Shown: positions 1,795-31,481, numbered from the stretch's first letter. The stretch is 32,000 nt of DNA from Promethearchaeum syntrophicum (GCF_008000775.2 NZ_CP042905.2:1230001-1262000); one strand, 5' to 3'. The notes: generated by a model not told the origin, from the letters alone. Numbers and translations are program-made.

Positions 1795-3171
1795 TTATCT
1801 CCTTTTTACAAAATATTTTTTAATAAAATCTTTCTTAATCCTAGTTAATTCTCCCATTCCTAGGGGGCTCAATATATTCCAAGCAATATTTAGTGTCTCT
1901 TCGAAAGTTCTCTCAGTTTCTCCTTGATTGGCAAAGTAGGTCTCGAATAATTCTCCAAATTTTAAATACTTTTTATCAATGAGAGTTAAACTATCTGAAC
2001 CTATAATTGATTCCAGTTCTTTGACTTGGAGAAATTTATTATATGCCGCATAAAGTTGAGATGCAATATCTCCATGATCTTCTCGAGTGCTACCTTCACC
2101 GATTGCATCCTTCATTAACCGAGACAATGAAGCAAGTGGATATATTGGTGGAAAGATACCTTTCTGATGAAATTCTCGAGAAAGCACAATTTGACCTTCT
2201 GTAATATAACCTGTTAAATCTGGAATAGGATGTGATATGTCATCATTTGGCATTGTTACAACAGGAATTTGAGTAATTGAACCTTTTTTTCCTCGAATAC
2301 GACCTGCTCGTTCGTATATTGAAGCTAGATCACTATACATATATCCGGGGAATCCTTTTCTGGCAGGAATTTCGCCTTTAATATTTGATACTTCCCGTAA
2401 TGCCTCTGCATAACTGGTCATATCACTCAAAACAATTAAAACATGCATATCATGCTTAAATGCTAAAAATTCTGCTGTGGTTAAAGCGATTTGAGGGACA
2501 ATTAATCTCTCAATTGTAGGATCTGAAGCTAAATTTATGAAAGAAATTAATCTTGTTTTTCCTCGTTCTTCAAATTTCTGTTGAAAATATAGTGCACTTT
2601 CTGCCAAAATTCCAATTCCACAAAAAATTGTAACGAAAGGTTCATTAGTACGAACTTTTGCATTATTTACAATTTGTGCAATTAATCTATTGTGCGGAAG
2701 GCCTTGCCCTGTAAAAATTGGAAGTTTTTGTCCTCGAATAAGAGTATTAAGTCCATCGAAAAGAGAAATACCCGTTTGAATAACATCTTTTGGATACGCT
2801 CGTCTTACAGGATTTATAGGTTCTCCATTAATGTTACGCATCTCTTCTGGTAATATAGGGTCTCCTCCATCTATCGGGAGCCCCATTCCGTTAAATCTAC
2901 GACCTATCATTTCTCTTGAGACACCAATTTGAAAAATATCATCAAGAAATGTTATTTCTGTTTCAGTTGTTCCAACTCCAATTCCAAAAGTTCCTTCAAT
3001 GACTTGTATTACTACAATTTCATGACTTACACTTAAAACTTGTCCTGTTCTTATCCCTTCTCTTGTTTTTATACGGACAATACTCCCATTTTTTATATTG
3101 TGATGGTCTATTGGTTTTAAATACATCAAAGGATCTTTCACAGTTGTTAGATTTTTATATATTATTGACAT
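1795..3171 (-). CDS. atpB: A/V-type ATP synthase subunit B (non-catalytic)
   Basis: 458 aa with conserved blocks: [77 protein letters not shown]. Confidence 0.95.
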
Positions 3172-3174
3172 TTT

Positions 3175-4959
3175 TTAGAGCAACTCCGCATATTGACGAT
3201 GAATTTGTAAAAGATCTCGGGAAAGCATCAAATCTAGCAAATCCAATTCATCTAGATTTTCATTACTAATATCTAATCTTGCTCGTCTTATTGAATTAAT
3301 TACTTCTAATTCTTTGAATCGAAAGAATGGAACATTTTTTCTAATTAAACCTAAACTTTCATTGTAAAACTTGAGAAATAAGCTAATAAGCTTCATTGTT
3401 TTTTCTGGAGAAGAATACCGATCATTATCATTAAAGCCATTTTGGATAAGAAATCCTTCTTTGATTAATTCTGCTGTATATATAATAAGTTGCTGATCAG
3501 GTGGTAAATTTTCTGGACCAATTAATTTAGCGATGCTTGATAATTCACCTTCTCTTGAAAGTATAAAATTAATCGCTTTACGATATTCCTCCCATCCTTT
3601 ATGTATATTTTCTTCCCAAAATTCTGCTAAATTATCATACAAAGAATAAGAATTTATCCAATTAACCGATGGATAATGCCTGGCATAAGCTAGATTAGGA
3701 TCCAATGCCCAAAACGCTTTGACGAATCTTTTTGTATTGGTTGTAACAGGTTCCGAGAAATCACCACCGCCAGGAGAAACCGCACCAATGATTGTGATTG
3801 AACCAACTCTTCTTGGATTTCCAATAATTTCAATCAATCCCGCCCGTTCGTAAAAATTGGCTAATCTTGTTGCTAAATAGGCAGGATAACCTCCTTCGGT
3901 TGGCATTTCCTCAAGCCTTCCTGATAACTCTCTTAAAGCTTCAGCCCACCTACTTGTACTATCTGCTAAGAGTAAGACATTCTTTCCCATATCCCGGAAA
4001 TATTCGGCCATTGTTATTCCTGCAAAAATTGAAGCTTCACGTGCAGATACCGGCATATTACTTGTATTCGCAATCATAATTGTTCGTTCCATTAAGGGAC
4101 GATTATTTTCTGGATCTACTAATTTAGGAAAACTATTCAACAAATCCGCCATCTCATTGCCACGTTCACCGCAGCCAATGTAAACTATAACATCAGCGTC
4201 TGCAAATTTTGCCAAGGAATGTTGCACGACCGTTTTACCCGTACCAAACCCTCCAGGAACTGCTACAACACCTCCTCTGGCTACAGGAAATAATAAATCA
4301 AACACACGAGTTCCGGTTATTAATGGTCTGTCTGGCATTAATCTTTTATGATAAGGACGGGGGATACGGATCGGCCATTTGGAAAGAATTATTTGATCAT
4401 AATTTTTATTTTCATTTTTTATACTATAAATTTTCTCAATTATATTGAAATCTCCTTCAGAGATTTCTGTAATCGTACCAGTTAAACCTTGAGGGACCAT
4501 GATTTCATGATAAAGAGAATATTCTTGTACATATCCTACAATATCTCCTTCTTGTACAGTTTCACCAATTTTAACTGTTGGTACAAAATGCCATTTTTTT
4601 TCCCGATCAAGAGCATTAACTTTCATTCCACGTGAAATGAAATCTCCAGTAATATCTGCTATGTAATCTAAAGGACGCTGTATCCCATCATATATTGAAT
4701 TAAGTAAACCCGGACCCAATTCCATTGAAAGAGGATATTGAAGATTGGTTACAATTGCATTTAATTTTAACCCTAGGGTTTCTTCATAACATTGAATTAC
4801 GGCAATATTATCTATTATTTTAATAATTTCTCCTATAATATTTAATTCTTCACTTACATTAACCATGTCTCCGACAGATTGATGAGAAAAACCTTTCACT
4901 TTGATAACAGAACCATTTATTGAACTAACATTGCCTATTATTTTATGATTTTCACTCAA
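3175..4959 (-). CDS. atpA: A/V-type ATP synthase subunit A (catalytic)
   Basis: 594 aa. Walker A is PGGFGTGKTVVQH. Other conserved blocks are ADSTSRWAEALRELSGRLEEMP and GSITIIGAVSPGGGDFSEPVT. The length is normal, so there is no intein. Confidence 0.95.
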   Translation of the reverse strand: MSENHKIIGNVSSINGSVIKVKGFSHQSVGDMVNVSEELNIIGEIIKIIDNIAVIQCYEETLGLKLNAIVTNLQYPLSMELGPGLLNSIYDGIQRPLDYIADITGDFISRGMKVNALDREKKWHFVPTVKIGETVQEGDIVGYVQEYSLYHEIMVPQGLTGTITEISEGDFNIIEKIYSIKNENKNYDQIILSKWPIRIPRPYHKRLMPDRPLITGTRVFDLLFPVARGGVVAVPGGFGTGKTVVQHSLAKFADADVIVYIGCGERGNEMADLLNSFPKLVDPENNRPLMERTIMIANTSNMPVSAREASIFAGITMAEYFRDMGKNVLLLADSTSRWAEALRELSGRLEEMPTEGGYPAYLATRLANFYERAGLIEIIGNPRRVGSITIIGAVSPGGGDFSEPVTTNTKRFVKAFWALDPNLAYARHYPSVNWINSYSLYDNLAEFWEENIHKGWEEYRKAINFILSREGELSSIAKLIGPENLPPDQQLIIYTAELIKEGFLIQNGFNDNDRYSSPEKTMKLISLFLKFYNESLGLIRKNVPFFRFKELEVINSIRRARLDISNENLDELDLLDLMLSRDLLQIHRQYAELL

Positions 4960-5635
4960 TATCTTTTACCTCGGGATGTTTTTGATGAAAAATTTCTGTT
5001 GCATTTTTAACATTTACTTCAAATATCGGAAAAATTTTCATAAATTCAATTGAAATCTCTTGTTTGTGTTTCATTATGAGAGATTCAAACGTGTAATCGA
5101 TACATAAAGTGTTATGTCTATCAATAATTTTAAACCCAAACAAAGTTTCGATGGGATTATCACTTAATTTAAGTATATCTCGCTTTTCGGGTAGTAATTT
5201 ATAAATTGAATTTTTTTTAAGATATTTAAGATCTTTAGAATTTATATAGATATTTGATGCAATGTTCACTAATGGGAGTAATTCGATTATTTTCCTTTTT
5301 AAAAATGAAAAATATTTATCTGGATCTTTTTCAATTCTTCTAATTATCTCTTTTTGTAAAAGTTCAATAAAATTATCAACACATTCTGTCTTTTTCTGGG
5401 AAATCTTTTGATTTATTTTTGAAATGCGTTTACTTTCTTCAATATTTAACTTAGTTTGGGTTTTTTTTATTAATTTCTTTTCGAGTTTAAGAAGATCTCT
5501 CTCAGTCTTGTCAAGGGTTGTTTCCTTAATATAACTAATAGAAGATTCTTTCCTTTTTTGAAGAACTTCAATTTCTTTGTTTATTATCCTTGCCAAATCA
5601 TAAGCAACATCTTTAAAATCTTCACGTAATGACAT
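4952..5635 (-). CDS. atpE: A/V-type ATP synthase subunit E (peripheral stalk)
   Basis: 227 aa. A long Lys/Glu-rich N-terminal helix is followed by a globular C-terminus (ETLFGFKIIDRHNTLCIDYTFESLI) that fits the subunit E pattern (GG-v-i-v-x-x-d-g-x-i-x-x-d-n-T-f-e-s-l-l). It overlaps the atpA start by 8 nt. Confidence 0.7.
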   Translation of the reverse strand: MSLREDFKDVAYDLARIINKEIEVLQKRKESSISYIKETTLDKTERDLLKLEKKLIKKTQTKLNIEESKRISKINQKISQKKTECVDNFIELLQKEIIRRIEKDPDKYFSFLKRKIIELLPLVNIASNIYINSKDLKYLKKNSIYKLLPEKRDILKLSDNPIETLFGFKIIDRHNTLCIDYTFESLIMKHKQEISIEFMKIFPIFEVNVKNATEIFHQKHPEVKDIE

Positions 5636-5659
5636 TTTTATTTCTCCATCGAATTATAT

Positions 5660-5962
5660 TTAAATTAAACCAATATATTTTTGAATAAATTGTTGAAAGT
5701 AATTGAAATCAAGGGTTCCTTTAATATCTGGAACTTCTATAATAATTGGGGATTTTTGTTTTTTCAAACTTGTAAAAAATCCCTTAAATCGTATTAAAAA
5801 TTTTTCGCTTATTATTATTAAACCAATATCTTTATCTCTTAATATTTCGTTAAATTGTTCCTTTAATTCATCCTCATCTTCAGTAGTTATTTCGAACCCT
5901 GTAATCCCTATCAAACTAAACATTAAATTTAGATGCTCGTCACCAACTGAAACAATTTTCAT
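5660..5962 (-). CDS. atpF: A/V-type ATP synthase subunit F
   Basis: 100 aa. The N-terminus MKIVSVGDEHLNLMFSLIGI matches the subunit F opening (M-K-I-a-V-i-G-D-x-d-t-v-x-G-F-x-L-a-G-i). Confidence 0.8.
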   Translation of the reverse strand: MKIVSVGDEHLNLMFSLIGITGFEITTEDEDELKEQFNEILRDKDIGLIIISEKFLIRFKGFFTSLKKQKSPIIIEVPDIKGTLDFNYFQQFIQKYIGLI

Positions 5963-5992
5963 TTTTTTTCCCCATTATTTATTAACTAAAAA

Positions 5993-6517
5993 TCAAAAAG
6001 TAATACCTAAAATTTCCAATCCTCTTTGAATTAATGATTTTGATTTAATTTTGTAAATCATATCTATTTCGCTTAAATTCATATGCTCTTGTGAAGATAA
6101 CATTTCTAAATTTTTTGTCATTTCTTCAGTTAATTCTGTTTTATAAAAATTAATTTCTTTATACTTGTTTTCTAGAGCCTTTTTATATTTTAAGCCATAT
6201 TTCTCTTTGTATTCTTCTATTTCGTTTTTAATATCGTCTTTTTCTTTTTCTATCGAATGTTTATAACGCTCTTCGATTGTTCTAACTTCCAAAAAAATTT
6301 TTTTAGGATTATTTGAAAAAGTTCTATTTCGTAAATGCTCACACTGTTCGGGGGTAATATCCTTACAAGATAGTTCTTCATCGGTATAATTACAACTTTC
6401 TTTATCTTTTTTTTTGTCATTTACTAGATTACCAACCTTTCCGATCATTTCTTTTTTCTTGTTTTTCTTATTTTTTTTCGATTTTACCATTTTTTCCCCT
6501 CGATTTCTTTTTTTCAT
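5993..6517 (-). CDS. Hypothetical Lys-rich/coiled-coil protein embedded in the ATPase operon; possibly a divergent peripheral-stalk subunit H (G-like)
   Basis: 174 aa. The start is 1 nt from the atpC stop and the gene ends 30 nt before atpF. The N-terminus is an extremely basic low-complexity tail (KKRNRGEKMVKSKKNKKNKKKE). A Cys-containing segment follows (CNYTDEELSCKDITPEQCEH), then about 100 aa of heptad-like Glu/Lys sequence. The subunit H assignment rests only on position and the coiled-coil character. Confidence 0.4.
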   Translation of the reverse strand: MKKRNRGEKMVKSKKNKKNKKKEMIGKVGNLVNDKKKDKESCNYTDEELSCKDITPEQCEHLRNRTFSNNPKKIFLEVRTIEERYKHSIEKEKDDIKNEIEEYKEKYGLKYKKALENKYKEINFYKTELTEEMTKNLEMLSSQEHMNLSEIDMIYKIKSKSLIQRGLEILGITF

Positions 6518-6518
6518 T

Positions 6519-7550
6519 TTATAATATACTTAGTTTGACTACTTGCGCGCGAATATCTTTAATTTCCATTTCCTTGAGTAATATTATTTGGAATATTAAT
6601 GCAAGAGACGATATTTGAATATCTGAAATTATTCCTTCCTTGAAATACATTAGAAACTGATTCAAAAAATAAGTTGAAAGCTTAACCCAAATTTCCGGAT
6701 CCGGTTTTTCTAATAATTCTGACAAAAAGTCATATTCTTTTTCAGACTTTAAAAAATTCGCTAAATAAGATAAAAATTCCTCTAAAGACCTACTACTGCA
6801 TAATTGATTAATCTGGGATGTACTAAATAGATAACTCTGATAAATTATATAAGGTTTTATTGACTCGACAGGAATTCCATTATATAATGTACGATAAATT
6901 AGATTTAGATTATAATAATCTATTTGAGTGTTAATATAAGGCGCAATTAATTTCTTTTCACGATGAGGGAGATAATCAATCTTTTCAATCATATTAGTAA
7001 AATTAAATTTATCCAATTCATTTTCAAAGTAAAAATTTTCACCAGATTTCTCAAACTCTTGTAAACCTATTTTGATAATTTTATCATAAGGAGTATTTTT
7101 TATTGTAGTATAAATTCCCTTCATATTTTTAGCTTTAATTAAATTTGAAATAAATACATCTCTTTCCAGCAATATTCCTGGTTTAAAGTAAATCTGATCC
7201 AAAATAGTATCTAATGGTGTTTTTTCTATGATACCATAGATCGCTTGCTTTATATTCCATATTTCATAACGAACTAAAAGAGATTTCAAAAAAATTTGGA
7301 TTGATTCAGGAGATGCGACAATGATTTTTTCAATAATATCAAAATAAATATTCCATAAAGAACGTTCAAATTCTATAAGATTATGTTCTTTTGGGGAAAA
7401 ATTAGGGAAAAATCGTTTGGTGAAGGTGCCTAAAGCATCTAAATTATCAAATGTTTTAATTTTTTGAGTATCTTCAGGTGTCATTAAAAGAGATTTTAAT
7501 AAAGCAAGCTTGACATACACAAACGAATATTCATCCACCGCAACCCGCAT
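6519..7550 (-). CDS. atpC: A/V-type ATP synthase subunit C (eukaryotic d homologue)
   Basis: 343 aa, all-helical. The opening (EYSFVYVKLALLKSLLMTPED) fits the subunit C pattern (Y-a-Y-v-n-a-R-v-r-a-x-k-s-x-L-l). Size and operon context also agree. Confidence 0.8.
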   Translation of the reverse strand: MRVAVDEYSFVYVKLALLKSLLMTPEDTQKIKTFDNLDALGTFTKRFFPNFSPKEHNLIEFERSLWNIYFDIIEKIIVASPESIQIFLKSLLVRYEIWNIKQAIYGIIEKTPLDTILDQIYFKPGILLERDVFISNLIKAKNMKGIYTTIKNTPYDKIIKIGLQEFEKSGENFYFENELDKFNFTNMIEKIDYLPHREKKLIAPYINTQIDYYNLNLIYRTLYNGIPVESIKPYIIYQSYLFSTSQINQLCSSRSLEEFLSYLANFLKSEKEYDFLSELLEKPDPEIWVKLSTYFLNQFLMYFKEGIISDIQISSLALIFQIILLKEMEIKDIRAQVVKLSIL

Positions 7551-7583
7551 ATAACTCCCGACAATTTCTTTTATATTATTCGA

Positions 7584-7928
7584 TCAAGGGATCTTTGTCC
7601 AAAGCAAGATACCTATGATAAGCCCGTATACGGCAAGTGCTTCACCTAAGGCAACTACTAAGAAGGCTTTGAAAAACGCTTCCGGTCTTTCTGCCAAAAC
7701 TGATATTGCAGCTGTTCCAGTTGTTTTTATTGCAATTGCAGCACCTAATACTGATGCACCAATAGAAACTGCGGAACTAATTGCGAGTATTGAAGCAACA
7801 TCAACACCACTGGTTTCTTGAGTAGGTAATGCCAATGCAGTAATCGTTTTGACTGAAGAAATAACAGTTAAGATTAACACAACCTGCCAGCTGAACAATA
7901 AAATGTAAAATTTTGTTTTACCACGCAT
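7584..7928 (-). CDS. atpK: A/V-type ATP synthase proteolipid subunit K (c), single hairpin with an extra N-terminal hydrophobic segment
   Basis: 114 aa. The Gly/Ala-rich helix is SSAVSIGASVLGAAIAIKTTG, the loop is LAERPEAF, and the second helix carries the ion-binding Glu (VVALGEALAVYGLIIG). Confidence 0.85.
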   Translation of the reverse strand: MRGKTKFYILLFSWQVVLILTVISSVKTITALALPTQETSGVDVASILAISSAVSIGASVLGAAIAIKTTGTAAISVLAERPEAFFKAFLVVALGEALAVYGLIIGILLWTKIP

Positions 7929-13498: not shown

Positions 13499-15850
13499 TC
13501 AGAATAAAGCTTTATACCAACAACTTTCTTTTATTTTTGCATAAACTTGTGAATAAGATTGCATTTCTTCAATTGAGTGAAACATATCTGTACATACATC
13601 AAATAAAAATTCTACATCATAATTCTCAGAAGAAAAAGTTAATCTTGAGATTGAAACGTGTTTCTTAAAAATAATTTTAATATCATTTATAAACTTAGAA
13701 AAATCAGAACTTTTGAGATTCTTCTCTTCTATAATACTAAATTCTTCTGAGTTAAATATTACAGAACCCAGCAAGCAAATTGATACTGCGTTTTCTATCC
13801 ATCTTATTAAAAATTCTTGATTTTGTATAAATTTCGGAGAAGAATCCATTTTTATATTAGTTAGAAGCAAACCAAAGAAAGTGAATAATTCAATATCAAA
13901 AGGGATTAAAGGAATTCTATAAAAATAATTACTTCGGAATTTTAGTGCATCTCCCCATGCACTTGAACTATATAAAGCACGATAAATATTCAAAACAATA
14001 TTTGAAGATAAATAGGTTAGAAATGCTGGTAAATTTCCTTTTGCCGGATATATCTTAAACGCTGAGAATTGTATATCACTTTCTTTAAAAAAGTAAACAC
14101 CCCCATAAGCAATTGAAGGCAAATTTGATCCAAATTTTAATCCTGCATATAACTTTTTTCCTAATTCTCGAAAATATAAAGTAGTTTCACTCATATATGC
14201 GATTATTTCTGTTTTTTTAAGGGAATTCCTAGATTGGTCAAGAAGTTCTGGGAGAGTTATATATTGTCGATGTTTTCCGATATGATAACGAGTAATATCT
14301 TTTCCTCTTATTTCACCAATGTACTCCGATTTTTTAATTTCTGATAGTTCCGACCATTGTTCAGAAGTAATTCTAATAGGAGTTGAATCAGGAATTTTGT
14401 GTTTAAAGCGGGCAATTCGTGTTCCTTCATGAATTTTAAGGATTTTTTTCAATCGAGGGAATTTATTAACTGAAATAAGAAAATTTTGCATCTCTTCTGA
14501 AAGTTCAGTAAAGAAAATATTATACATATATGAGAGATCTTGAGAAATTTTTTGCTTTTCGATAGTATTTATGTTGAAATTCTGTAAGATAGAATTTTTT
14601 TTGATTAATGCAGAATAATAAAGATGATCTTGTTCAACTTTCTCATTAATATCTAATCTTCCTTGTTTTGAAATTGTAAGGATACACGGATGAACATTTG
14701 CCCGAGGAAAAATTTGTATTTTCGGATTAAAATCAACAATTAATTGAATTTTACATTGTTTTAATAGGAAAACGCGCAATTTTAAGGCATAATCATTAGA
14801 TAAAACTCGGTTAGGGATAATAAAAGATAAAAATCCTTTATATTCAAGATGATCTACTGCTCTTTTCAAGAAATAAAAATATAAATCTGGTTTACTTCCT
14901 TTTTTTATTACCAAAGAATAATTTTCTTTTAATTCATTAAGCGTTTTTTTAGATATGTTTTTTTTAATATTATCTGAACTGATATATGGCGGATTTCCAA
15001 ATATTATGTGAAATTTCAATGGAAAATCTTTTCCAAAATTTGTTAATGTATTACCAAGATATGAGTGAAAGGTAATTTTATCAATTAGATGACTGTATTT
15101 TCTTGAAAAAAGAGTTATTAAAATACATTTAATACGAATTTTAGTGATTTCTAATGAGTAATTATTGAGATCAGCAAAATAGAGATTTTCTTTGATAAAA
15201 TTACAAATTTCTGAAATGATATCTGTTCTAATTTCTTCCGAATACGAGAAAATGAGAATTTTTATTGATTTATTAAAGATTTCTGTATCAATATCAGTAT
15301 CAATATTATTATTCCGAATAAAATATAGGGTAAAAATTTTACAGATTTTTTGAATCAAGGATGTAATAAAAGCACCCCCTCCCACACAAGGATCCAAAAT
15401 TTTCACCTTTTTCATTGCTTTCTTAAATAATATGTTTGTAAAGGATTGATAATCAAATTTTTCATCATTATTGAGCATTCTTCTAAGAAGTTGATCTAAA
15501 CTCTTGGGCTTTTTTTTTAAAAAATCATTAGAAAAATAGCCATTCAATTCCAAAAAAAGCCATTGATCAAACGTATAATCAACCATGGTATCTGTTATCC
15601 ATGAGGGTGTGAAGATTATACCGGAATTGTTAGATTTATTATTTCCTACAGATTCAAAAATTTTTTCTAGTGTTTTTGGGGTAATTAAATTGCATTCTGC
15701 ATTAATTTTAGCTTCTTTAAGAGATAATTTCCATAATCTCCCTTTAAATTGAAAATTGTCTTTATTTTTGTCTTTGATTAACTCTTTGAATCCATATATC
15801 AATCTGTCCAATGTTTCTTCTGTTTCAAGGATTTCATGATTTGGATTCAA
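13499..15850 (-). CDS. Gamma-class N6-adenine DNA methyltransferase with a C-terminal TaqI/Eco57I-type target-recognition domain; no nuclease domain seen
   Basis: 783 aa. Motif X is GIIFTPSWITDTMVDY, motif I is ILDPCVGGGAFI and motif IV is FGNPPYISS. The C-terminal half carries TRD-like strings (IRGKDITRYHI, LSSNIVLNIYRALYSS). As given, the ORF begins at a TTG codon. Confidence 0.8.
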   Translation of the reverse strand: MNPNHEILETEETLDRLIYGFKELIKDKNKDNFQFKGRLWKLSLKEAKINAECNLITPKTLEKIFESVGNNKSNNSGIIFTPSWITDTMVDYTFDQWLFLELNGYFSNDFLKKKPKSLDQLLRRMLNNDEKFDYQSFTNILFKKAMKKVKILDPCVGGGAFITSLIQKICKIFTLYFIRNNNIDTDIDTEIFNKSIKILIFSYSEEIRTDIISEICNFIKENLYFADLNNYSLEITKIRIKCILITLFSRKYSHLIDKITFHSYLGNTLTNFGKDFPLKFHIIFGNPPYISSDNIKKNISKKTLNELKENYSLVIKKGSKPDLYFYFLKRAVDHLEYKGFLSFIIPNRVLSNDYALKLRVFLLKQCKIQLIVDFNPKIQIFPRANVHPCILTISKQGRLDINEKVEQDHLYYSALIKKNSILQNFNINTIEKQKISQDLSYMYNIFFTELSEEMQNFLISVNKFPRLKKILKIHEGTRIARFKHKIPDSTPIRITSEQWSELSEIKKSEYIGEIRGKDITRYHIGKHRQYITLPELLDQSRNSLKKTEIIAYMSETTLYFRELGKKLYAGLKFGSNLPSIAYGGVYFFKESDIQFSAFKIYPAKGNLPAFLTYLSSNIVLNIYRALYSSSAWGDALKFRSNYFYRIPLIPFDIELFTFFGLLLTNIKMDSSPKFIQNQEFLIRWIENAVSICLLGSVIFNSEEFSIIEEKNLKSSDFSKFINDIKIIFKKHVSISRLTFSSENYDVEFLFDVCTDMFHSIEEMQSYSQVYAKIKESCWYKALF

Positions 15851-23308: not shown

Positions 23309-23819
23309 ACTTTGAAAGCTGATTATGAACAACTGATTTAAAGATATATCCCTTGTTTCGGAGCAGACCCCTTCACTTCGGGGTAGTTATGGGATTTAAT
23401 ATATAGAGGGGGATTATTAAGATAATATGATGGTATTGGTGTATTTATGGACAAATTGGAGATTATTTGAGTGAATAAAATTCAGGAAAATTCACTATCC
23501 TTAGTGAAAAATGATTTTTGGCTTAGAACCACCAACTTTTAACTACTTCTGGCTAAAGTTTTTTTTCCACAATTTCGAGCTAATTATCAATAATTAAGAT
23601 TAGGCAACAATAATTAAAATAAAATCACCTCATATATCGGAAAAGATAAAATTTATTCGCTAATTGATCAAATTGTGAATAATAAAGAAATCCAAGAGAT
23701 TAAGAGTAAGATTTTGAAGGAATAAAACAACAATTCTTTTTTGAAATTTGATAAATAATTTTTCAGTAATTGTACAAAAAGGAACCTTTTTAAAGATCAA
23801 GATTAAAATTATTATTGAA

Positions 23820-24575
23820 ATGACAACAATAAGAACAAGAACATATACATACAGATGTAATTGTGGACAATCTGGAAAAATATCCAAATCTAATCGAAAT
23901 TTTGGGAGCCTTGACCTAGAACCATCTGATATTCCAAGATGCATTAATTGTAAAGCAGTTGTCTGCAGTAGTTGCTTAGGGGGGAAATCCGGATTATGCA
24001 AACGTTGTTTTGCACAAATCCCTCCCCAATTAAAAGAGTCTTTAGAGAGAATTCAGATCCTTAGCACAATTATTCCATGTTTTTCTTCATTTCTTATTTT
24101 TTTAATTGCTACACTTATACTACCTCAGGCTTTCGGTTTTTTTATAATTGGTGGTATATTCTTAACCGGGATACTTTTATCTGCAAGTGATTCGAATGCA
24201 AAATCAAAAAGACAAAAGAAAATCGAAGCATATTTTTTAAATCAGCGATCCAGATTTAAATCCGGTTTTGTAAATTCTAATGCATACAATGTATCAGGAA
24301 AAAGAATTGAAAATCCAAGGGATTTTATGAATGCATTAAGTGGTGAGGGCTTTTCAATAAACTTAGGTCCAGTTAAACAACAAATGAAACCTCAATTGAG
24401 AGAATCGATACTTAAAATAAGTAGAGAACAAAAGAATAAATCTATGACGATATACGAAATCGCAAAACAGTCTGGAGTGATATTTCCCGATGTCATACGG
24501 AGTACATTACATAAAATGATAAATAATAATAACATTAAAGCAGATTTCGATGAGATTAATATAACATTTCATTAA
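23820..24575 (+). CDS. Membrane protein with an N-terminal multi-Cys zinc ribbon, two TM helices and a C-terminal winged-helix-like domain
   Basis: The start was moved to the ATG at 23820: MTTIRTRTYTYRCNCGQSG...CINCKAVVCSSCLGGKSGLCKRC (eight Cys). Two hydrophobic helices follow (ILSTIIPCFSSFLIFLIATLIL and FGFFIIGGIFLTGILLSA). The C-terminus is MTIYEIAKQSGVIFPDVIRSTLHKMINNN, which is HTH-like. Confidence 0.6.
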   Translation: MTTIRTRTYTYRCNCGQSGKISKSNRNFGSLDLEPSDIPRCINCKAVVCSSCLGGKSGLCKRCFAQIPPQLKESLERIQILSTIIPCFSSFLIFLIATLILPQAFGFFIIGGIFLTGILLSASDSNAKSKRQKKIEAYFLNQRSRFKSGFVNSNAYNVSGKRIENPRDFMNALSGEGFSINLGPVKQQMKPQLRESILKISREQKNKSMTIYEIAKQSGVIFPDVIRSTLHKMINNNNIKADFDEINITFH

Positions 24576-24628: not shown

Positions 24629-25282
24629 TTATGTGTTTAGAATGATTATAGCTACTACAATCGCCACAACTAGTACAACACAAGTAGCCACGCAGTATAT
24701 AGTAATTAATGCTTGTTGGCTCTTAGGAGTATATGGGGTTACACTTTCTGCTTGAATACCTATAGGAATTTGTGTATTCTCGGCTAAGAATTTATTCAAA
24801 TTTTGGGCAAATTCTGTAGAATTCTCATTATCCAAAAAATTGGTCAGATGTTTTGGTCTTCTAGATTGAAAACATAAAGAAAGAAGTTGGTTTTGCGTGA
24901 CTCCATGCATAGAACCTTTTTTATTCGCATAGACATTATGGACTTCAAATCCTTTTATATCATTGAGTGGATAAGATTTAGTAAAAGTAAAATAATTTCC
25001 CCATTGGGATTCAAGAATTAATGCTCCATTTTGTTCATCAACTTTAAAAACTAAAGCCAAATCTCTTCTTAAAAAACCGAATACTACAGGTAAGATAACT
25101 ATCGATCCATTAAAAACATGTAATACAATATAACCATTGATACTAACAGGATCTGAAAAATCACCTTTCAGTATAGTTAGTACTATCATCATTATCCAAA
25201 CTAAACTCATTATCGCAGAAAATTGATATGAGCCTTTGGTGTTAGTCTGTTTAGGTAATATAAATTCTGGTTTCGATTCCAT
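24629..25282 (-). CDS. Membrane protein (2 N-terminal TM helices, a beta-rich soluble domain, 1 C-terminal TM helix); possibly a bacterial-PH-like fold
   Basis: 217 aa with clear hydrophobic segments. The middle domain has alternating beta-like strings ending in a helix (TEFAQNLNKFLAEN). The fold assignment is a guess. Confidence 0.5.
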   Translation of the reverse strand: MESKPEFILPKQTNTKGSYQFSAIMSLVWIMMIVLTILKGDFSDPVSINGYIVLHVFNGSIVILPVVFGFLRRDLALVFKVDEQNGALILESQWGNYFTFTKSYPLNDIKGFEVHNVYANKKGSMHGVTQNQLLSLCFQSRRPKHLTNFLDNENSTEFAQNLNKFLAENTQIPIGIQAESVTPYTPKSQQALITIYCVATCVVLVVAIVVAIIILNT

Positions 25283-25528
25283 GACAATTTTATAGATCTA
25301 CTTCCTAATAAATTAATCTCCGACAAATAATTGATTAAGAAAATAATAAGAGAATTTGTACCATAAACATTCGATTTTAATATGCGTTTCGAACGTAAAT
25401 ATTTAAATGTTTTATTTTCATATATTATCGTATAGTTTTAATATGTTATACAAATACTTTGTCACAAGAATATAATTAATAAATATAGGAAAATTGAAAG
25501 TTACCTTTCAAAATTCAAAATCAATACC

Positions 25529-25537
25529 TATATAAAA
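25529..25537 (+). promoter_or_regulatory. Candidate TATA box for the GT2/PIG-L/BshC-like operon
   Basis: TATATAAAA is centred about 25 nt upstream of the ATG at 25558, which would imply a leaderless transcript. Confidence 0.3.
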
Positions 25538-25557
25538 GAAAAAATGATGAGAATCTT

Positions 25558-26541
25558 ATGGGAATAAGAAAAAATGAAAATATTAAGATATTATTATTTC
25601 TTCCCTGTTACAATGAAGCGGAAAATTGTGTTCGAGTACTAAATGAACTACACATACAAAAAACTATTCTTGAAAAAAATTTTTTAATCGATTTCGACAT
25701 TTTAATTATCAATGACGGCTCCACGGATGATACCGCTTTAATTCTCTCACGAAACCATCATATATTAGATTATTCCGTAATAAATTTGGTAGAAAATAAG
25801 GGATATGGATTTGCACTAAAAACTGGTTTTAAATTTGCTCAAGAAAATAACTATGATTGGGCTATTTCATTTGATATTGATGGTCAACATGAATCAAAAT
25901 TTATTTATGATTTTATTGAATTCATTATAAATGGCAATTCTAATTTTGATATTCTATCCGGTACTCGGTATAAAGACCCTCACCTATTTTGGCAAAATCC
26001 TTGGAAGGATAGATTTTTAGTAAATGCAGTTATAACTGGTGTTTTGAATAATTTTGGTTTTTCTTTAACAGATGCATTTTGTGGATTTAAAGCGTATAGG
26101 GTTGATAAGCTCGAATGCCTAAAAATTTCAATCGATGGTTATGAAATGGCAATTGAACTACTCATGGAAGCCAACAAAAATAATTTTCATATCGTTGAAA
26201 TTCCCGTCCCAGTTATTTATAAAGATCATGATACAATTCTCAAAAAACGCACCAATGAAAGTTTCCTCTTTACGGAAGGCGAAAAAAGAGTAGAAAAATA
26301 TCTCAAAATAATATCAAAATATGTAGGCCATCGCTTAATTCACGAGATCAAATATTTCCAAGGGATCTTCAGTACATTTTTTAATTCATATGAAGATATT
26401 TCAAAATTTAATTTTGAAGAAATAAAAGAGAAAATTATTGAGGAGATATCTACCTTACATCTTACAGAACTTACAAAAATTCAGTGCAATCATGATGACT
26501 CTAAAACTCGATGTACTTGCTGTGGGTGCACATCCCGATGA
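25558..26541 (+). CDS. Family 2 glycosyltransferase (GT-A fold, DPM1/GtrB-like) with a roughly 90-aa soluble C-terminal extension
   Basis: Motifs: LLFLPCYNEAEN, IINDGSTDDT, GYGFALKTG, and FDIDGQH (DxD-type). Confidence 0.8.
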   Translation: MGIRKNENIKILLFLPCYNEAENCVRVLNELHIQKTILEKNFLIDFDILIINDGSTDDTALILSRNHHILDYSVINLVENKGYGFALKTGFKFAQENNYDWAISFDIDGQHESKFIYDFIEFIINGNSNFDILSGTRYKDPHLFWQNPWKDRFLVNAVITGVLNNFGFSLTDAFCGFKAYRVDKLECLKISIDGYEMAIELLMEANKNNFHIVEIPVPVIYKDHDTILKKRTNESFLFTEGEKRVEKYLKIISKYVGHRLIHEIKYFQGIFSTFFNSYEDISKFNFEEIKEKIIEEISTLHLTELTKIQCNHDDSKTRCTCCGCTSR

Positions 26542-27184
26542 TATTGAAATTGGCTGTGGTGGAATATTAGCCCATTATAAGAAGATGGGAAAAACAACAG
26601 GAATTTTAGATCTTACGAATGGTATGCCCACCCCTTATGGAACCGTAGAACAACGTTTAGCGGAAGCTAAGAATGCAGCTGAGATTCTAAAAGTTGATGT
26701 AAGGGTCACTTTAAACATGGAAAATCGTTATCTTGAGAATTCTATTAAGAATCGGAAAGAGATCGGTGATATGTTTAGGAAATTTCGACCAAAAGTCATT
26801 CTCACACATCCAATTGAAGATTTTCATCCTGATCATGTTGCGTGTCATCACTTAGTAAATGCCGCAATATTTCAAGCTAAATTGACAAAAACTGAATCAA
26901 AATTTCCTGAATACTACCCGCCAAGAGTCCTCTATTTTGATCACTCACATATTAGAAAACAGCGTGAATTAGATTTTCTCGTTGACATCACCGATTCTTT
27001 AGAAGATAAAATTAGCGCTTTAGAAGCTTATCGGTCTCAATTTATTGAGAATAAGAAGAATTCAATTGTTTTTAGCTATGTTAGAGACAGAGCCAGTTAT
27101 TTAGGTCATCAAATAGGAGTAAAATATGCTGAAGGGTTAATGTGTCCGAATTATTTTCAAATTAATGACATAACAAAAATTTAG
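26492..27184 (+). CDS. PIG-L/LmbE-family N-acetylglucosaminyl deacetylase (BshB/MshB-like)
   Basis: MMTLKLDVLAVGAHPDDIEIGCGG (family motif A-H-P-D-D-x-E) plus DFHPDHVACHH (H-P-D-H). The start was placed at the ATG ATG at 26492, which overlaps the GT2 3' end by 50 nt. Confidence 0.85.
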   Translation: MMTLKLDVLAVGAHPDDIEIGCGGILAHYKKMGKTTGILDLTNGMPTPYGTVEQRLAEAKNAAEILKVDVRVTLNMENRYLENSIKNRKEIGDMFRKFRPKVILTHPIEDFHPDHVACHHLVNAAIFQAKLTKTESKFPEYYPPRVLYFDHSHIRKQRELDFLVDITDSLEDKISALEAYRSQFIENKKNSIVFSYVRDRASYLGHQIGVKYAEGLMCPNYFQINDITKI

Positions 27185-27191
27185 TACTGGT

Positions 27192-28907
27192 ATGAAGATG
27201 CCTCATAATGATAAAGATGCCTTAGATTCTTATAAAAAGTGGGCTATTGACAATAAATCTTCTTGGATTTCAGATCAAATGCAAGATTTCATTCCTCATT
27301 CTATGAAAAATGCAATAGATCTCGCAAAACGAAATTTTGGAGAGATTTTATCATTTCAAAATGATAGAGATTTAAAAGAGAAGCTTGGTAAAATATTTGA
27401 AGAAACAACTAAAAAATATAATGCATTTACAGAAAAAGCCAAAAATCACCTTGAGGTTTTTTATCAAAATGGTTTAGGAATTGAAATTGCCCATCAACCT
27501 AAATTTCTCGGCGGAGAACGATTTGTGTATAACAAATTATCTTGTGGTGCAATGTTTGCCCAACAGGAAGATAAGTTTTTTCCATTCTTTTACAATGCAG
27601 ATTATGATAAAGTTCATCCCGAATTAATAAAAACTCATTTTCCTTTATACAATTCTAAATCGGGATATTCTTCCTCGATTTCGGCTTCTCAAGAGATTGA
27701 ATACAATGAGGCAAGAATTAAAGATTTGCCCTTACCAACAGAAGAAGAAATCAACAATTATTTAGAGAATATTAAACAGAAATATCTATTCTCAATTAAG
27801 GCAATTGTAGAAAACAAATGGCAACAAAAACTCATTGAAGAACGATTTGAAACTACTTCGCACATAATCAAATCAAGTTGGGCTAAATCTAAAGAATATC
27901 CCGATTTATTTGTCAATATAATTAGTAATTTTTCAAATATTGTATATAACCAAGGATTTCTTTTCCTTTCAGCTAGTGATCCAAGATACAAACAGCTACT
28001 AATCCCCCAATATGAATTTTTATTAAAAAATCAAGAAAAATACTTTGCCAATTACGATACAATTAGAAATAAATTCTTCCAGCTTGGTATCAATCCACCT
28101 TTAAGGGAAATTAAACCAGATTTAATCCCATTCTTTTATGAGTGCCAAAATCCGAACTGCTTCCATCAACGAATTCAACTTTATTACGAATCACGTGGAT
28201 CCAAAATATTAATGAAAGGAATTTGTCCTAAATGTAAAACACCGATAGAATTTGAAGCAGATATTAATCATCCCGATTTATCCGATATCGGATTAAATCT
28301 CACCCCTCGAGTTGAATCTCGCCAAAATCTTGTATCTAGCACAATTCCGATTGGAATACATGTAGCTGGAACTGGAGAAGCGCGTTATTATACAATGGGA
28401 ATTCCAATTTTTAAAAATATCAATCCTGAAATAATTCTTCCCGTTATTTATTTCTATAATAAGACCACAATGAATACAGTGATTACCAGAAATCTGGAAC
28501 AAAAACTTATTGATCTTCAAATACCGGCATTTTTGGATAATTTAAAAATACTAATGAAATATACTGGAAAATTCAATAAACTATGTAAAAAGCAAGAAAA
28601 TGAACAAGAATTTTCAAACAGGAAAGAAAAAGCAATAGAATTTCTAAAAGAAGTAAAAAATTATCAAATTAAATTAGAAGAAGCGTGCAATCAATATATC
28701 AAAGAAAATCCAAACTCTCCAGATTCAAAATTAGTATTATATTACTTAAGTAATATGTTTGGAAAAATATCAAAAGAAAAACACGGCCAAGAGGCCGTCT
28801 TTAATTGGATAGATTTAAGTATTAAAAATGGTTTAACTCATATTTTAGATGATTATAAAAGACTTTACAGGCCTTGGCTTCCTCCCGGAATGGAGATTAT
28901 GTTTTAA
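27192..28907 (+). CDS. BshC-like protein (putative cysteine/amino-acid-adding enzyme of a bacillithiol-type pathway), divergent and carrying a zinc ribbon
   Basis: 571 aa. Four collinear motif matches to Bacillus BshC as I recall it: IAHQPKFLGGERFVYNK, FFPFFYNADYD, LTPRVESRQ...HVAGTGEARYY, and the C-terminal QEAVFNWIDLSIKNG. A coiled-coil segment precedes the C-terminus. It sits 7 nt after the PIG-L gene. Confidence 0.55.
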   Translation: MKMPHNDKDALDSYKKWAIDNKSSWISDQMQDFIPHSMKNAIDLAKRNFGEILSFQNDRDLKEKLGKIFEETTKKYNAFTEKAKNHLEVFYQNGLGIEIAHQPKFLGGERFVYNKLSCGAMFAQQEDKFFPFFYNADYDKVHPELIKTHFPLYNSKSGYSSSISASQEIEYNEARIKDLPLPTEEEINNYLENIKQKYLFSIKAIVENKWQQKLIEERFETTSHIIKSSWAKSKEYPDLFVNIISNFSNIVYNQGFLFLSASDPRYKQLLIPQYEFLLKNQEKYFANYDTIRNKFFQLGINPPLREIKPDLIPFFYECQNPNCFHQRIQLYYESRGSKILMKGICPKCKTPIEFEADINHPDLSDIGLNLTPRVESRQNLVSSTIPIGIHVAGTGEARYYTMGIPIFKNINPEIILPVIYFYNKTTMNTVITRNLEQKLIDLQIPAFLDNLKILMKYTGKFNKLCKKQENEQEFSNRKEKAIEFLKEVKNYQIKLEEACNQYIKENPNSPDSKLVLYYLSNMFGKISKEKHGQEAVFNWIDLSIKNGLTHILDDYKRLYRPWLPPGMEIMF

Positions 28908-28950: not shown

Positions 28951-29940
28951 ATGATTAATATCTTCGCAAAAGAGAATATGGAAAAAGACTATTGGGATCT
29001 CCCCGCGACCTATGATGGCCCTAAATTTGATGCTCACACACATATCTGGGACATTAAGCTAGCAGAGAAACATCTAAAATATGCTGAGGCTTTTAACATT
29101 CAAAAGATTATGGCAATTTTAGATGAAGATGTCGCGGGGAGATTGTCTCCAGATTTACATGATAGATTTATTTTTGCTAGGTTTCTCCGTAGTCAAAATA
29201 TGTTAAGTAATAATTCCAATGATATGGCTGATATGGTGGATGAATATTATTCTCAAGGTTATTCTATTATCAAATTTTGGTTTGCTCCTCGGTGGCGGGA
29301 TTATGTGGAACAAGAACTAAAGATCCCCGTTGATACAATAAAGTTATCCAGCTCTCTCTTTGAACCTATTTATACACGAATCGAGGATTTAGGGTTAATT
29401 TTTCTTATTCATAACAGTGATCCTGACCTTTGGTATGAAAAAAAATACCAACCAGAATCAAAATACGGTTCAAAGAAGAATCATCTTCAAGATCTTGAAA
29501 ATGTGCTACAATCTCATCCCAAAATGAAAGTTCTAGGAGCACATTTTGCTGCTCAACCTGAACATTTAGAAAATCTTGGGAGATGGTTTGATACATATCC
29601 TAATTTTTACGTGGATGCAAGCTCAGCTCGGTGGATGGCTAGAGAATTTTCGCGAAGAAAATCTAAAATTATTCCCTTCTTTAAACGATATTCTGATAGA
29701 ATTTTATGGGGGACTGATCTATCTTTTGGGGGTCAGGCTCGAAACAATATCCCCAAATATTATTTCACGCGATATTTAACATACCAGGTGTTATTGGAAA
29801 GTAATCTACAAGGAGTGCCTCTTTCTTTTCCTGATCCCGAAAATACTTCAGGAACGAATATAAATGGACTGGATCTCCCATTAGAAATCCTTGAAAAAAT
29901 CTATTGGAAAAATGCGGAGAAATTCTTTAAGAAAATCTAA
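28951..29940 (+). CDS. TIM-barrel metal-dependent hydrolase (amidohydrolase-2-like)
   Basis: FDAHTHIWD lies near the N-terminus (H-x-H metal ligands). Later motifs are IIKFWF, GAHFA and WGTDL, the last containing the terminal Asp ligand. Confidence 0.65.
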   Translation: MINIFAKENMEKDYWDLPATYDGPKFDAHTHIWDIKLAEKHLKYAEAFNIQKIMAILDEDVAGRLSPDLHDRFIFARFLRSQNMLSNNSNDMADMVDEYYSQGYSIIKFWFAPRWRDYVEQELKIPVDTIKLSSSLFEPIYTRIEDLGLIFLIHNSDPDLWYEKKYQPESKYGSKKNHLQDLENVLQSHPKMKVLGAHFAAQPEHLENLGRWFDTYPNFYVDASSARWMAREFSRRKSKIIPFFKRYSDRILWGTDLSFGGQARNNIPKYYFTRYLTYQVLLESNLQGVPLSFPDPENTSGTNINGLDLPLEILEKIYWKNAEKFFKKI

Positions 29941-29945: not shown

Positions 29946-31481
29946 TTAGGATAAAGTCTCTAAAAATTCTTTAGTCACATTTTTTGAATGCAACATTGTC
30001 CCTGGTAATCCACCTGCAGTTTTATCACTCTGAGAGCCAATGAACCATAGTCCTTTAATGGGAGTTTTATGAGGGGCCCCTGATTTTCCCATAATTGGAG
30101 CTCTTCCCCCAAATGCATGATGAGATTGATGGGTTCGAATTCTGAAATCTGCAGGAGTCATAATTTCCTTAACTAAGATATGTTCTCGTAAGTTTGGGAT
30201 CACTTTTTCTGCTTCAATTAACAATTTTTCAGAGAATTCATCTCGTCTTTCATTCCATGTTCCATGATCCAACTTATTGGGTGCAATAGTATATATAGTC
30301 ATAGCAAATTTTCCTTCTGGAGCCATTTCAGGAGAATGAAGGGAAGGAACATAAATAAGAAATCCGTCTTTTCCTTCATGATATACACCCTGCCGACAAC
30401 GAATCACTGCGCCTTCAACGTCGTTTGTTCCAATATAATAGCATAAGGCAGCACGTTGAAATTTACGAGGATCAAGATCAATTCCGAGATGAATCATATG
30501 AACCGATTCCATTAAGGGAATATCGATAATTTTATCAACGTAAGCAGGAGGAAGTCTGTCTTTTCCAACATTGTTAAAGAAAAATTCTTTCGCCCCTCCA
30601 CTTGCAAAAATTGCATCAGCAGTTATTTCATTTCCATTACGTAATCGAATACCTTGAACTCTATTTTTTTGAATAAGAAGTCGCTCTACTGGGGAATTCA
30701 CATAGATTTTTCCTCCATGAGCCAGAATATACTCTTCAAATACGTGTACAAGTTTTTCCATTCCCCCGAGAATATAGTGATAACTTGGGCGTGGTCCAGC
30801 AGATGTAATTTGAAGAGGTACGCGAATATCAAACGCATTTTCGTTATTAATAATCGGAAGACCTAACGCTGGAAATTCTGATGGTTTAGTTACAAAATCT
30901 GCTAGAAGACCGAGAAAAACTCCTTTAATTGCATCAGTATCAAAATATTCGTTCATTATCTGTGCTGCTGACATTGATTTTTTATCCTTAACATGTTGAA
31001 ATAAGAATAACATGCGAATTTTTAACAACAGTTTTCCAATTCCAGTAGCAGTATCAATGCGGCGAGAAATCGCCATTAAATCTGATACTCTTTCTCTAAA
31101 TTGATAATATTTAATTAAACTATCCCTTTCTTCAGGAAATAACTCTATTAATTTATCTCTTCTCCAAAACTGGCCAAAATATTTTTTCGGTTTCCAAAGA
31201 TCGAACTCTGGCATAACTAAACCTCGATCTGATTGTAAAAATTGTACTTGATCATAGATCCCCAGATCAACTAAGATGTTTCCTGCTGGTTCGTCTCGAA
31301 GAAAATCTTGAACGAGCATTGGACCTAGATCCCAACTAAAACCTTCTTTAGAGAATGTCGCAGTGACTCCACCAATTTTTGGAAATTGTTCAAAAATCTT
31401 AACTTCATAACCTGCTTGAGTTAAATAAGCTCCCGCAGTTAACCCTGCCATACCAGCGCCTATTATAATTATTTTTTTCAT
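29946..31481 (-). CDS. FAD/NAD(P)-dependent oxidoreductase of the phytoene desaturase (CrtI/CrtD-like) family
   Basis: N-terminus KKIIIIGAGMAGLTAGAYLTQAGYEVKIFEQFPKIGG. C-terminus GLWFIGSQSDKTAGGLPGTMLHSKN, typical of this family. Confidence 0.8.
   Translation of the reverse strand: MKKIIIIGAGMAGLTAGAYLTQAGYEVKIFEQFPKIGGVTATFSKEGFSWDLGPMLVQDFLRDEPAGNILVDLGIYDQVQFLQSDRGLVMPEFDLWKPKKYFGQFWRRDKLIELFPEERDSLIKYYQFRERVSDLMAISRRIDTATGIGKLLLKIRMLFLFQHVKDKKSMSAAQIMNEYFDTDAIKGVFLGLLADFVTKPSEFPALGLPIINNENAFDIRVPLQITSAGPRPSYHYILGGMEKLVHVFEEYILAHGGKIYVNSPVERLLIQKNRVQGIRLRNGNEITADAIFASGGAKEFFFNNVGKDRLPPAYVDKIIDIPLMESVHMIHLGIDLDPRKFQRAALCYYIGTNDVEGAVIRCRQGVYHEGKDGFLIYVPSLHSPEMAPEGKFAMTIYTIAPNKLDHGTWNERRDEFSEKLLIEAEKVIPNLREHILVKEIMTPADFRIRTHQSHHAFGGRAPIMGKSGAPHKTPIKGLWFIGSQSDKTAGGLPGTMLHSKNVTKEFLETLS

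Follow-up and report, generated by a model that had tools for sequence, protein, structure and literature searches.

In a 32,000-nucleotide stretch of the genome of the archaeon Promethearchaeum syntrophicum (GCF_008000775.2, NZ_CP042905.2:1230001-1262000; hereafter the window), we found a compact block of four genes that encode a family 2 glycosyltransferase (GT2), a PIG-L/LmbE-type deacetylase, a relative of the bacillithiol enzyme BshC, and a hydrolase of the Amidohydro_2 family. With moderate confidence, we read this block as a conserved operon of Lokiarchaeia type that builds an aminoacyl-glucosamine metabolite by the three-step logic of bacillithiol synthesis, though the aglycone differs and the first enzyme is not an orthologue of BshA. 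The product is most likely related to, and distinct from, bacillithiol itself, because a GT2 stands in the place of BshA and a malate-contacting residue of the deacetylase, Arg109, is replaced.

All four genes lie on the plus strand. The GT2 gene occupies 25558-26541, an open reading frame (ORF) of 327 aa, and is followed by the genes for the LmbE/BshB-type deacetylase (26492-27184, 230 aa counted from the ATG at 26492), the BshC-like protein (27192-28907, 571 aa), and the Amidohydro_2 hydrolase (28951-29940, 329 aa). The deacetylase ORF opens at 26438 with a TTG codon, and its first ATG codons are at 26492 and 26495. The GT2 and deacetylase genes overlap by 50 nt, the deacetylase and BshC-like genes are separated by 7 nt, and the BshC-like and Amidohydro_2 genes by 43 nt. 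An AT-rich spacer of 275 nt, read from the sequence, precedes the block on the same strand (25283-25557) and carries a TATA-like element, ctatataaaag, at about 25528-25538, roughly 20-30 nt ahead of the GT2 ATG; this spacer probably serves as the operon promoter, for a transcript with a short leader or none. The gene boundaries, overlap, gaps and 275-nt AT-rich upstream region given in the original prediction agree exactly with the ORF list.

The third gene had been proposed to encode a BshC-like protein, and both a profile search and a structure comparison bear this out. The 571-aa protein matched the BshC model TIGR03998 over residues 212-508 (E=6e-8), with 32.0 bits against a cutoff of 265.8, and the orthologue at a related locus, L002, scored 36.9 bits. 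The Pfam family PF10079 (Rossmann-like_BshC) gave no match to the window protein at E<=0.1, while 24 of 37 members of its clade match this family, the best at 3.6e-16. When the clade profile was compared with the PDB, the top match was B. subtilis BshC (4WBD, 0.0028), with collinear motifs. The AlphaFold (AF2) model of the protein, with a predicted local distance difference test score (pLDDT) of 92.8 and a predicted TM-score (pTM) of 0.92, had 4WBD as its sole significant Foldseek match in the PDB (E=1.2e-16, TM-scores 0.66/0.69, 12% identity); the next matches were class I aminoacyl-tRNA synthetases, at E>=0.02. As in BshC, the predicted fold comprises a Rossmann-like core, an inserted beta subdomain and a C-terminal helical hairpin. 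The hairpin helices (447-466, 471-505 and 510-523) lie at the position of the BshC coiled coil, where a coiled-coil region had been noted in the sequence.

The motifs lead to the same assignment. The translation contains HQPKFLGGERFVYNK, FFPFFYNADYD, TPRVESRQ..VAGTGEARYY, and QEAVFNWIDLSIKNG, and the signature motifs [GH]Q[QP]..G..K, P.F..A.[DE]D, R...Q, and AGxGE..Y are collinear with those of B. subtilis BshC, both in the HMMER alignment to 4WBD and in a multi-tier alignment. Of the four B. subtilis motifs used in the original comparison, HMMER alignments located three in the 4WBD sequence (GGQQAGLLTGPLYTIHK, IPIFWVAGEDHD, and VVTRPLMQE..IAGPGEINYW). Judged by profile and predicted fold together, the 571-aa protein is a true but very divergent homologue of BshC. 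Like the family matches of the deacetylase and the GT2 given below, these similarities are much stronger than chance would give.

Within its four-stranded beta subdomain, the protein carries four cysteines (C318, C323, C345, and C348) that are invariant in the core clade of closest relatives, and three of them are kept across all tiers of archaeal relatives described below. The same subdomain in B. subtilis BshC has zero cysteines, and the site is degenerate in a Heimdall protein whose gene is linked to BshA. By analogy with the zinc knuckles of the connective-peptide domains of class I aminoacyl-tRNA synthetases, this Cys4 site is probably a structural zinc site, that is, a putative zinc ribbon.

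The middle gene had been called a PIG-L/LmbE deacetylase with AHPDDxE and HPDH motifs. Both motifs are present in the translation, and the assignment can be narrowed. The protein matches the Pfam PIG-L/LmbE family at 3e-26 and the NCBIfam BshB1 model TIGR04001 over its full length with 201.1 bits (E=2e-59), above the cutoff of 182.5; the MshB and Mca models reach 33-35 bits, far under cutoff. Its closest relatives in the PDB are three bacterial BshB proteins, namely BC1534 (5e-37), the S. aureus N-acetylglucosamine (GlcNAc)-malate deacetylase (1e-32), and TT1542 (2e-29). The Thermococcales diacetylchitobiose deacetylases (Dac) match at about 1e-13, and the BshB matches are better by at least 20 orders of magnitude; a reading of the middle gene as a catabolic chitobiose deacetylase was rejected on these scores and on gene context. 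On its scores, the enzyme is specifically of BshB1 type within the PIG-L/LmbE family.

The active site and the aglycone pocket of this enzyme differ in how well they are conserved. The AHPDD and HPDH motifs align with the zinc ligands and catalytic residues of BC1534, which are His12, Asp14, Asp15, His110, Asp112, and His113 (PMC4101496). In BshB, Arg53 and Arg109 contact GlcNAc-malate; Arg53 is kept across the superfamily, and the R109K change lowers activity (PMC4101496). We found that Arg53 is invariant in 29 of 29 BshB proteins of the Asgard cluster. The position of Arg109 is never Arg in the 28 orthologues that cover the site, where it is Trp in 23, Phe in four (the window protein included), and Tyr in one, whereas it is Arg in all three solved bacterial BshB proteins (BC1534, S. 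aureus BshB, and TT1542). Because this GlcNAc-malate contact is aromatic in all cluster BshB proteins, the aglycone is probably not malate, and the earlier suggestion of a non-malate scaffold thus gains independent support. As far as these residues define it, the aglycone pocket of the deacetylase is changed in step with the swapped upstream glycosyltransferase, a correlated change.

The block is conserved well beyond the window. The 571-aa protein has 75 homologues, all in Asgard archaea, the closest with 89% identity and that of Candidatus Lokiarchaeum ossiferum, a cultured organism that carries the block, with 60%. Synteny was sampled with one genome per species, which gave 28 loci, 27 of them labelled Promethearchaeota or Lokiarchaeia-type and one Bathyarchaeota, with the proviso that taxonomy labels of metagenome-assembled genomes (MAGs) may be unreliable; the closest are MAGs of Promethearchaeum sp. 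Neighbourhoods were read by gene calls around three relatives and by a BLAST survey with the cluster genes across the 28 loci. In every locus with enough DNA, BshB is directly upstream of the BshC-like gene (27/27) and the GT2 gene is upstream of BshB (24/24), among orthologues that span 39-89% identity. Scattering of the three genes in related genomes, which would have spoken against the original prediction, was looked for, and the order GT2, BshB, BshC-like was found to be invariant. Median gaps are about 6 nt between GT2 and BshB, about 2 nt between BshB and the BshC-like gene, and about 10 nt between the latter and the Amidohydro_2 gene, and the flanks outside the block are wholly different between lineages.

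The Amidohydro_2 gene had been mentioned as a possible member of the same unit, and it is directly beside the BshC-like gene in 24 of 25 loci. It lies on the same strand in the six loci of the Promethearchaeum/Lokiarchaeum lineage and on the opposite strand in the 19 elsewhere; since the adjacency survives in both orientations, the linkage appears functional and not merely inherited. The protein is a TIM-barrel metal-dependent hydrolase that scores 59.5 bits with PF04909 (cutoff 26.4), and its metal ligands (HxH, K108, H154, H198, and D256) are invariant in eight orthologues. No NCBIfam family was matched that would place it more closely, and neither the single sequence nor the eight-member profile found a significant relative in the PDB, the best being LigW at E=0.099. 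As a separate observation, on a 3.7-Mb Promethearchaeota scaffold (L031:9968-11044) the BshC-like ORF stops at about residue 350, in the zinc-ribbon region, and no Amidohydro_2 gene follows it, with GT2 and BshB intact; this block may be a decaying copy.

Genes that recur next to the block may indicate how its product is used. A URO-D/MtaA-like gene comes after the block in 17 of the 28 loci, usually accompanied by one or two DinB_2 genes (e.g., L002:12821-14403 and L004:12819-15013). The URO-D gene is weakly similar to MtaA, of the methylcobamide:coenzyme M methyltransferase type (50 bits), and the His triad of the DinB_2 neighbours is invariant; these gave no significant sequence match to solved YfiT/BstA-type structures, so the DinB_2 assignment stays at Pfam level. 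Since DinB-fold proteins include bacillithiol and mycothiol S-transferases, their presence beside the block fits a thiol product, and their recurrence suggests that the product is used as a low-molecular-weight thiol. BstA is the bacillithiol S-transferase with this fold (PMC5790435). A zinc-dependent thiol methyltransferase, as the URO-D gene may encode, beside a putative thiol pathway is likewise suggestive. Thioredoxin-fold and thioredoxin reductase genes occur near the block in some loci. The Pyr_redox_2 gene upstream of the block at L002 was considered as a YpdA/Bdr bacillithiol disulfide reductase and rejected, as it is a thioredoxin reductase (314 vs 92 bits), present in one lineage only.

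The first enzyme sets this block apart from bacillithiol operons. Pfam, PDB sequence matches and Foldseek agree with the earlier view that the glycosyltransferase is a GT-A-fold GT2 of the DPM1/GtrB/ArnC kind and not a GT4. The protein matches PF00535 (Glycos_transf_2) at 3e-16, and no NCBIfam match to BshA (TIGR03999) was found for it, in keeping with a PF00535/GT-A and not a GT4/GT-B enzyme. Its best NCBIfam match is PpgS, a polyprenyl-phospho-N-acetylgalactosamine synthase, at 77 bits, so that it stays under every characterised equivalog cutoff (PpgS 370, ArnC 529, and AglJ 325). By sequence (phmmer), the nearest PDB entries are P. furiosus DPMS (1e-8), GtrB (2e-6), and ArnC (2e-5). The AlphaFold (AF2) model, built with 36 homologues as input (pLDDT 85.9), matched ArnC (8e-14), DPMS (1e-12), and GtrB (6e-12) in Foldseek, followed by glucosyl-3-phosphoglycerate synthase (GpgS, about 1e-9); soluble GT-A enzymes of this kind, with small anionic acceptors, are nearly as close in fold as the first three. 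The fold is GT-A, and the DxD motif (D106 and D108) is invariant in orthologues. GT2 enzymes are normally inverting and BshA is retaining, and the anomeric configuration of the product may for this reason differ from that of bacillithiol.

No transmembrane (TM) segment was predicted in the GT2 protein, whose top 19-residue hydropathy is 1.33, with no window above 1.6. A C-terminal extension of about 75 aa, common to all orthologues, forms three to four amphipathic or soluble helices. At its very end is a Cys-rich tail (..CNHDDSKTRCTCCGCTSR; CTCCGCTSR; 26470-26541) of low model confidence, which is restricted to the Promethearchaeum/Lokiarchaeum lineage (L029 and L032 have variants of it). It is this tail that makes the GT2 gene run 50 nt into the deacetylase gene; in most other species the two genes are about 6 nt apart.

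These features bear on a lipid-linked alternative, in which the GT2 loads GlcNAc onto a membrane lipid such as dolichyl or polyprenyl phosphate, the LmbE enzyme removes the acetyl group, and the BshC-like protein aminoacylates the resulting lipid-linked glucosamine, which goes to the cell surface. We regard it as unlikely. The closest GT2 relatives (DPMS, GtrB, ArnC, and PpgS) are all polyprenyl-phosphate transferases, the change of Arg109 to Trp or Phe makes the BshB aglycone pocket more hydrophobic and less basic, and there are precedents in ArnC followed by a deacylase in lipid A modification and PIG-A followed by PIG-L in glycosylphosphatidylinositol (GPI) synthesis. Human DPM1 and PpgS are themselves without TM helices and depend on partner proteins. 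However, no TM segment was predicted in any of the four proteins, the C-terminal extension of the GT2 is a soluble-looking helical bundle and not a set of TM helices, and soluble GpgS-type enzymes are almost as close in fold as the lipid-phosphate transferases. In addition, genes for membrane glycosylation, such as those for a flippase or an oligosaccharyltransferase, are not kept nearby in three related loci, and the conserved neighbours elsewhere are cytosolic (DinB_2, URO-D, and thioredoxin-type).

We then consider the place of BshA in Asgard archaea. A search with the BshC-like profile over 1.84 billion representatives gave 246 relatives in three tiers: the core clade at >750 bits, a second tier (Heimdall, Hodarchaeales, and Thor) at 200-350 bits, and a third, which includes Nitrososphaeraceae, at 50-110 bits. 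None of 20 sampled full-length relatives among the 246 reaches the BshC cutoff, so no canonical BshC was seen near the Asgard clade in this sample. The core-clade proteins form a clade apart from the BshA-linked one. The latter is represented by a Heimdall-type protein at locus L034, which scores about 220 bits with the clade profile and 103 bits with the BshC model, has the bacterial-type TGQQ motif, and is the closest to canonical BshC in the second tier. Its gene adjoins a genuine GT4 BshA (TIGR03999 360 bits, cutoff 273.7; 4e-83 to the solved BshA), and no GT2, BshB or Amidohydro_2 gene was found within 8 kb. The genes are thus arranged in two ways in Asgard archaea: in the Heimdall type a BshC-like gene accompanies a GT4 BshA, and in the Loki type GT2, BshB, BshC-like and Amidohydro_2 genes stand together. 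With the L034 BshA as probe, and taking the best 120 of 5870 matches, the named Asgard orthologues (56-96% identity) are all from Heimdallarchaeia; the matches after these, BshA proteins of bacteria and Bathyarchaeia, have about 42% identity, and no Lokiarchaeia or Promethearchaeota name appears. This suggests that lokiarchaeial genomes have no GT4 BshA elsewhere, and among the window ORFs scanned against Pfam there was no GT4 glycosyltransferase.

Two further members of the superfamily were seen in other contexts. At L038:5302-8656, the gene for a second-tier BshC-like protein (P0216) lies on the same strand as, and about 250 nt downstream of, a gene of the cysteinyl-tRNA synthetase family (PF01406). 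This is a single case, and it fits the long-standing idea that BshC-type enzymes need activated cysteine. On a Nitrososphaeraceae contig (L035:6187-10773), the gene for a third-tier protein with an HQPN..KK motif and no NCBIfam BshC match is flanked by two ATP-grasp_3 ligase genes and a PHP phosphoesterase gene. Ammonia-oxidising archaea seem here to put the BshC fold to some other, uncharacterised use.

The distribution of BshA is relevant to whether the block makes ordinary bacillithiol, with BshB and the BshC-like protein working with a GT4 BshA encoded elsewhere and malate as acceptor, and the GT2 decorating the product or serving an unrelated glycosylation. This is consistent with a deacetylase that clears the BshB1 equivalog cutoff, with the NCBI name "bacillithiol biosynthesis protein BshC" for several relatives, and with the true BshA beside the BshC-like gene in Heimdall-type Asgard archaea. 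A 2020 review, moreover, noted BshA and BshC homologues in Asgard archaea from InterPro counts and predicted bacillithiol there (PMC7278568); pairs of the L034 type probably account for at least some of these homologues. Nevertheless, we consider ordinary bacillithiol distinctly unlikely. The GT2 gene is tightly joined to bshB in every species examined, the named Asgard BshA orthologues among those best 120 matches are confined to Heimdallarchaeia, and the malate contact of BshB is lost throughout the cluster. The BshC-like protein is far under the equivalog cutoff and belongs to a clade other than the BshA-linked one, and in a RefSeq survey of 2025 no archaeon had all of BshA, BshB and BshC (PMC12719100).

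That common descent alone keeps the four genes side by side, or that they serve the breakdown of GlcNAc or chitin-type substrates, with no joint biosynthetic pathway, is most improbable: the LmbE family does include the Thermococcales enzymes, and the related genomes all belong to one archaeal lineage, so that part of the synteny is inherited, but the block is retained where the flanks differ completely, successive genes are 0-10 nt apart, the amidohydrolase gene has kept its place beside the block despite being inverted, the BshB matches far exceed the Dac matches, and a glycosyltransferase and a BshC-family ligase would be out of place in catabolism.

The preferred reading, a pathway for an aminoacyl-glucosamine metabolite with its own aglycone, would run as follows. 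The soluble GT2 would move an N-acetylhexosamine (HexNAc), probably GlcNAc from uridine diphosphate (UDP)-GlcNAc, to an acceptor X, which is probably not malate and is perhaps a small molecule bearing a phosphate or carboxylate, or a polyprenyl phosphate. The BshB1-type zinc deacetylase would then free the amine, converting HexNAc-X to the hexosamine conjugate HexN-X, and the BshC-like enzyme, in keeping with its homology and fold, would acylate this amine with an amino acid in activated form (cysteine is the likeliest) to give a thiol of the type cysteinyl-glucosamine-X (Cys-GlcN-X). The Amidohydro_2 enzyme would act in the same pathway, where it may act beforehand on the acceptor or the acyl donor to prepare it, or afterwards in recycling of the product. 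We offer only tentatively the further idea that this product is made with a GT-A enzyme in place of BshA, and that the zinc ribbon, the Amidohydro_2 partner and the cysteinyl-tRNA synthetase neighbour of one lineage are clues to the "missing" component, or to the activated cysteine donor, whose absence has barred reconstitution of the BshC reaction since 2010.

Several points weigh against the preferred reading. With 32 bits, the 571-aa protein falls far under the BshC equivalog cutoff of 265.8, and its function need not be that of BshC. The nearest relatives of the GT2 all act on polyprenyl phosphates, and this suits a lipid-linked glycan no less than a soluble cofactor; the amidohydrolase, for which the PDB searches gave nothing significant, has no assignable reaction. 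The DinB_2 and URO-D neighbours are absent from the window, and the suggested lack of a GT4 BshA in lokiarchaeial genomes is drawn from the best 120 of 5870 matches. Finally, the Bacillus BshC reaction itself was never reconstituted (PMC5790435), and there is no archaeon in which bacillithiol has been detected (PMC7278568).

We compared the block with known systems. The bacillithiol genes bshA, bshB and bshC of Bacillus and Staphylococcus, also found in Chlorobiota, Bacteroidota, and Deinococcota, follow the same order of glycosyltransferase, LmbE deacetylase and BshC-family enzyme. The likeness extends to a deacetylase above the BshB1 cutoff, a third protein with the BshC fold and signature motifs, and a glycosyltransferase gene beside bshB, as in the B. 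subtilis operon shared by bshB1 and bshA (PMC5790435). The differences are a GT2/GT-A in place of a GT4/GT-B enzyme, the aromatic residue at Arg109, a BshC-like protein that is 12% identical to the Bacillus enzyme and has a Cys4 site, and an Amidohydro_2 gene as a fixed extra member; the genes here form one tight block, whereas B. subtilis bshC is transcribed apart from bshA and bshB1 (PMC5790435). The heimdallarchaeial pair at L034 is likewise from Asgard archaea and has a BshC-like protein of the same superfamily, but it differs in its GT4 BshA neighbour, TGQQ motif, degenerate Cys site and higher BshC score (103 bits).

Mycothiol synthesis in Actinomycetota (MshA, MshA2, MshB, MshC, and MshD) also proceeds by transfer of GlcNAc to an acceptor, LmbE deacetylation and cysteine ligation. 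MshA is a GT4, and MshC is a paralogue of cysteinyl-tRNA synthetase, similar to class I aminoacyl-tRNA synthetases and outside the BshC family, while the block has a GT2 and a BshC-family enzyme, and its deacetylase matches the MshB and Mca models only weakly. Mycothiol is a Cys-GlcN-X thiol with an inositol aglycone, and the aglycone of such thiols can therefore vary (PMC7278568). In the ArnC/ArnD, PpgS and PIG-A/PIG-L systems, an N-acyl amino sugar is transferred and then deacylated, and the window GT2 is closest to ArnC, DPMS, GtrB, and PpgS. However, DPMS, GtrB and ArnC have C-terminal TM helices that the window GT2 lacks, the deacetylase here is of BshB1 type, as against the NodB-type ArnD or the eukaryotic PIG-L, and those pathways contain no BshC-family enzyme.

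The window has a G+C content of 25-38% and holds several other genes. The upstream spacer is bounded by a divergent membrane-protein gene of 217 aa on the minus strand (24629-25282) without family assignment, of which the three closest MAGs (L005-L007) have one to three tandem paralogues ahead of the block and other lineages none. Ahead of it, on the plus strand, a 275-aa ORF (23748-24575) has a Cys-rich N-terminus of CxxC..CxxC type, a hydrophobic middle and a faint C-terminal winged-helix match (PF22560, E=0.049), and fell into no family. Downstream, a gene for an oxidoreductase of the CrtI/phytoene-desaturase family, dependent on flavin adenine dinucleotide (FAD), lies on the minus strand (29946-31481; TIGR02734 105 bits, below cutoff) and converges on the amidohydrolase gene, with 5 nt between the stop codons. 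It was considered as a member of the block and rejected, because it is not kept beside the block in any related locus. The window also holds a minus-strand operon (1150-7928) for the A, B, and C/AC39 subunits of an A-type (archaeal) ATP synthase, in keeping with an archaeal origin, together with genes for a UDP-glucose dehydrogenase, an epimerase, and transporters of the major facilitator superfamily. An Eco57I-like restriction-modification methylase of 783 aa on the minus strand (13499-15850) sits in the stretch of lowest GC (0.25-0.28) and may be mobile or recently acquired.

Bacillithiol-type genes in an archaeon are not new in themselves, because InterPro counts of such homologues have been published (PMC7278568) and some relatives carry BshC names at NCBI. 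In the literature on Asgard bacillithiol, low-molecular-weight thiols and PIG-L proteins, we found no account of this cluster beyond those counts, and no published account of the GT2 in place of BshA, the constant Amidohydro_2 neighbour, the aromatic residue at the Arg109 position or the zinc ribbon. Eukaryotes have their nearest known relatives in the Asgard lineage. Its redox cofactors are uncharacterised, and thiols based on glucosamine have yet to be detected in archaea (PMC7278568); the block is a concrete four-gene candidate for a glucosamine-based thiol cofactor in this group, and cultured members such as Candidatus Lokiarchaeum ossiferum make the candidate pathway directly testable. 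The BshC reaction is still unsolved (PMC5790435), and a divergent BshC branch with fixed gene partners offers fresh candidates for the missing factor. If the GT2 is a true replacement, our results suggest an enzyme displacement within one superphylum, from a GT-B BshA in Heimdallarchaeia to a GT-A GT2 in Lokiarchaeia, with the downstream aglycone pocket changing in step.

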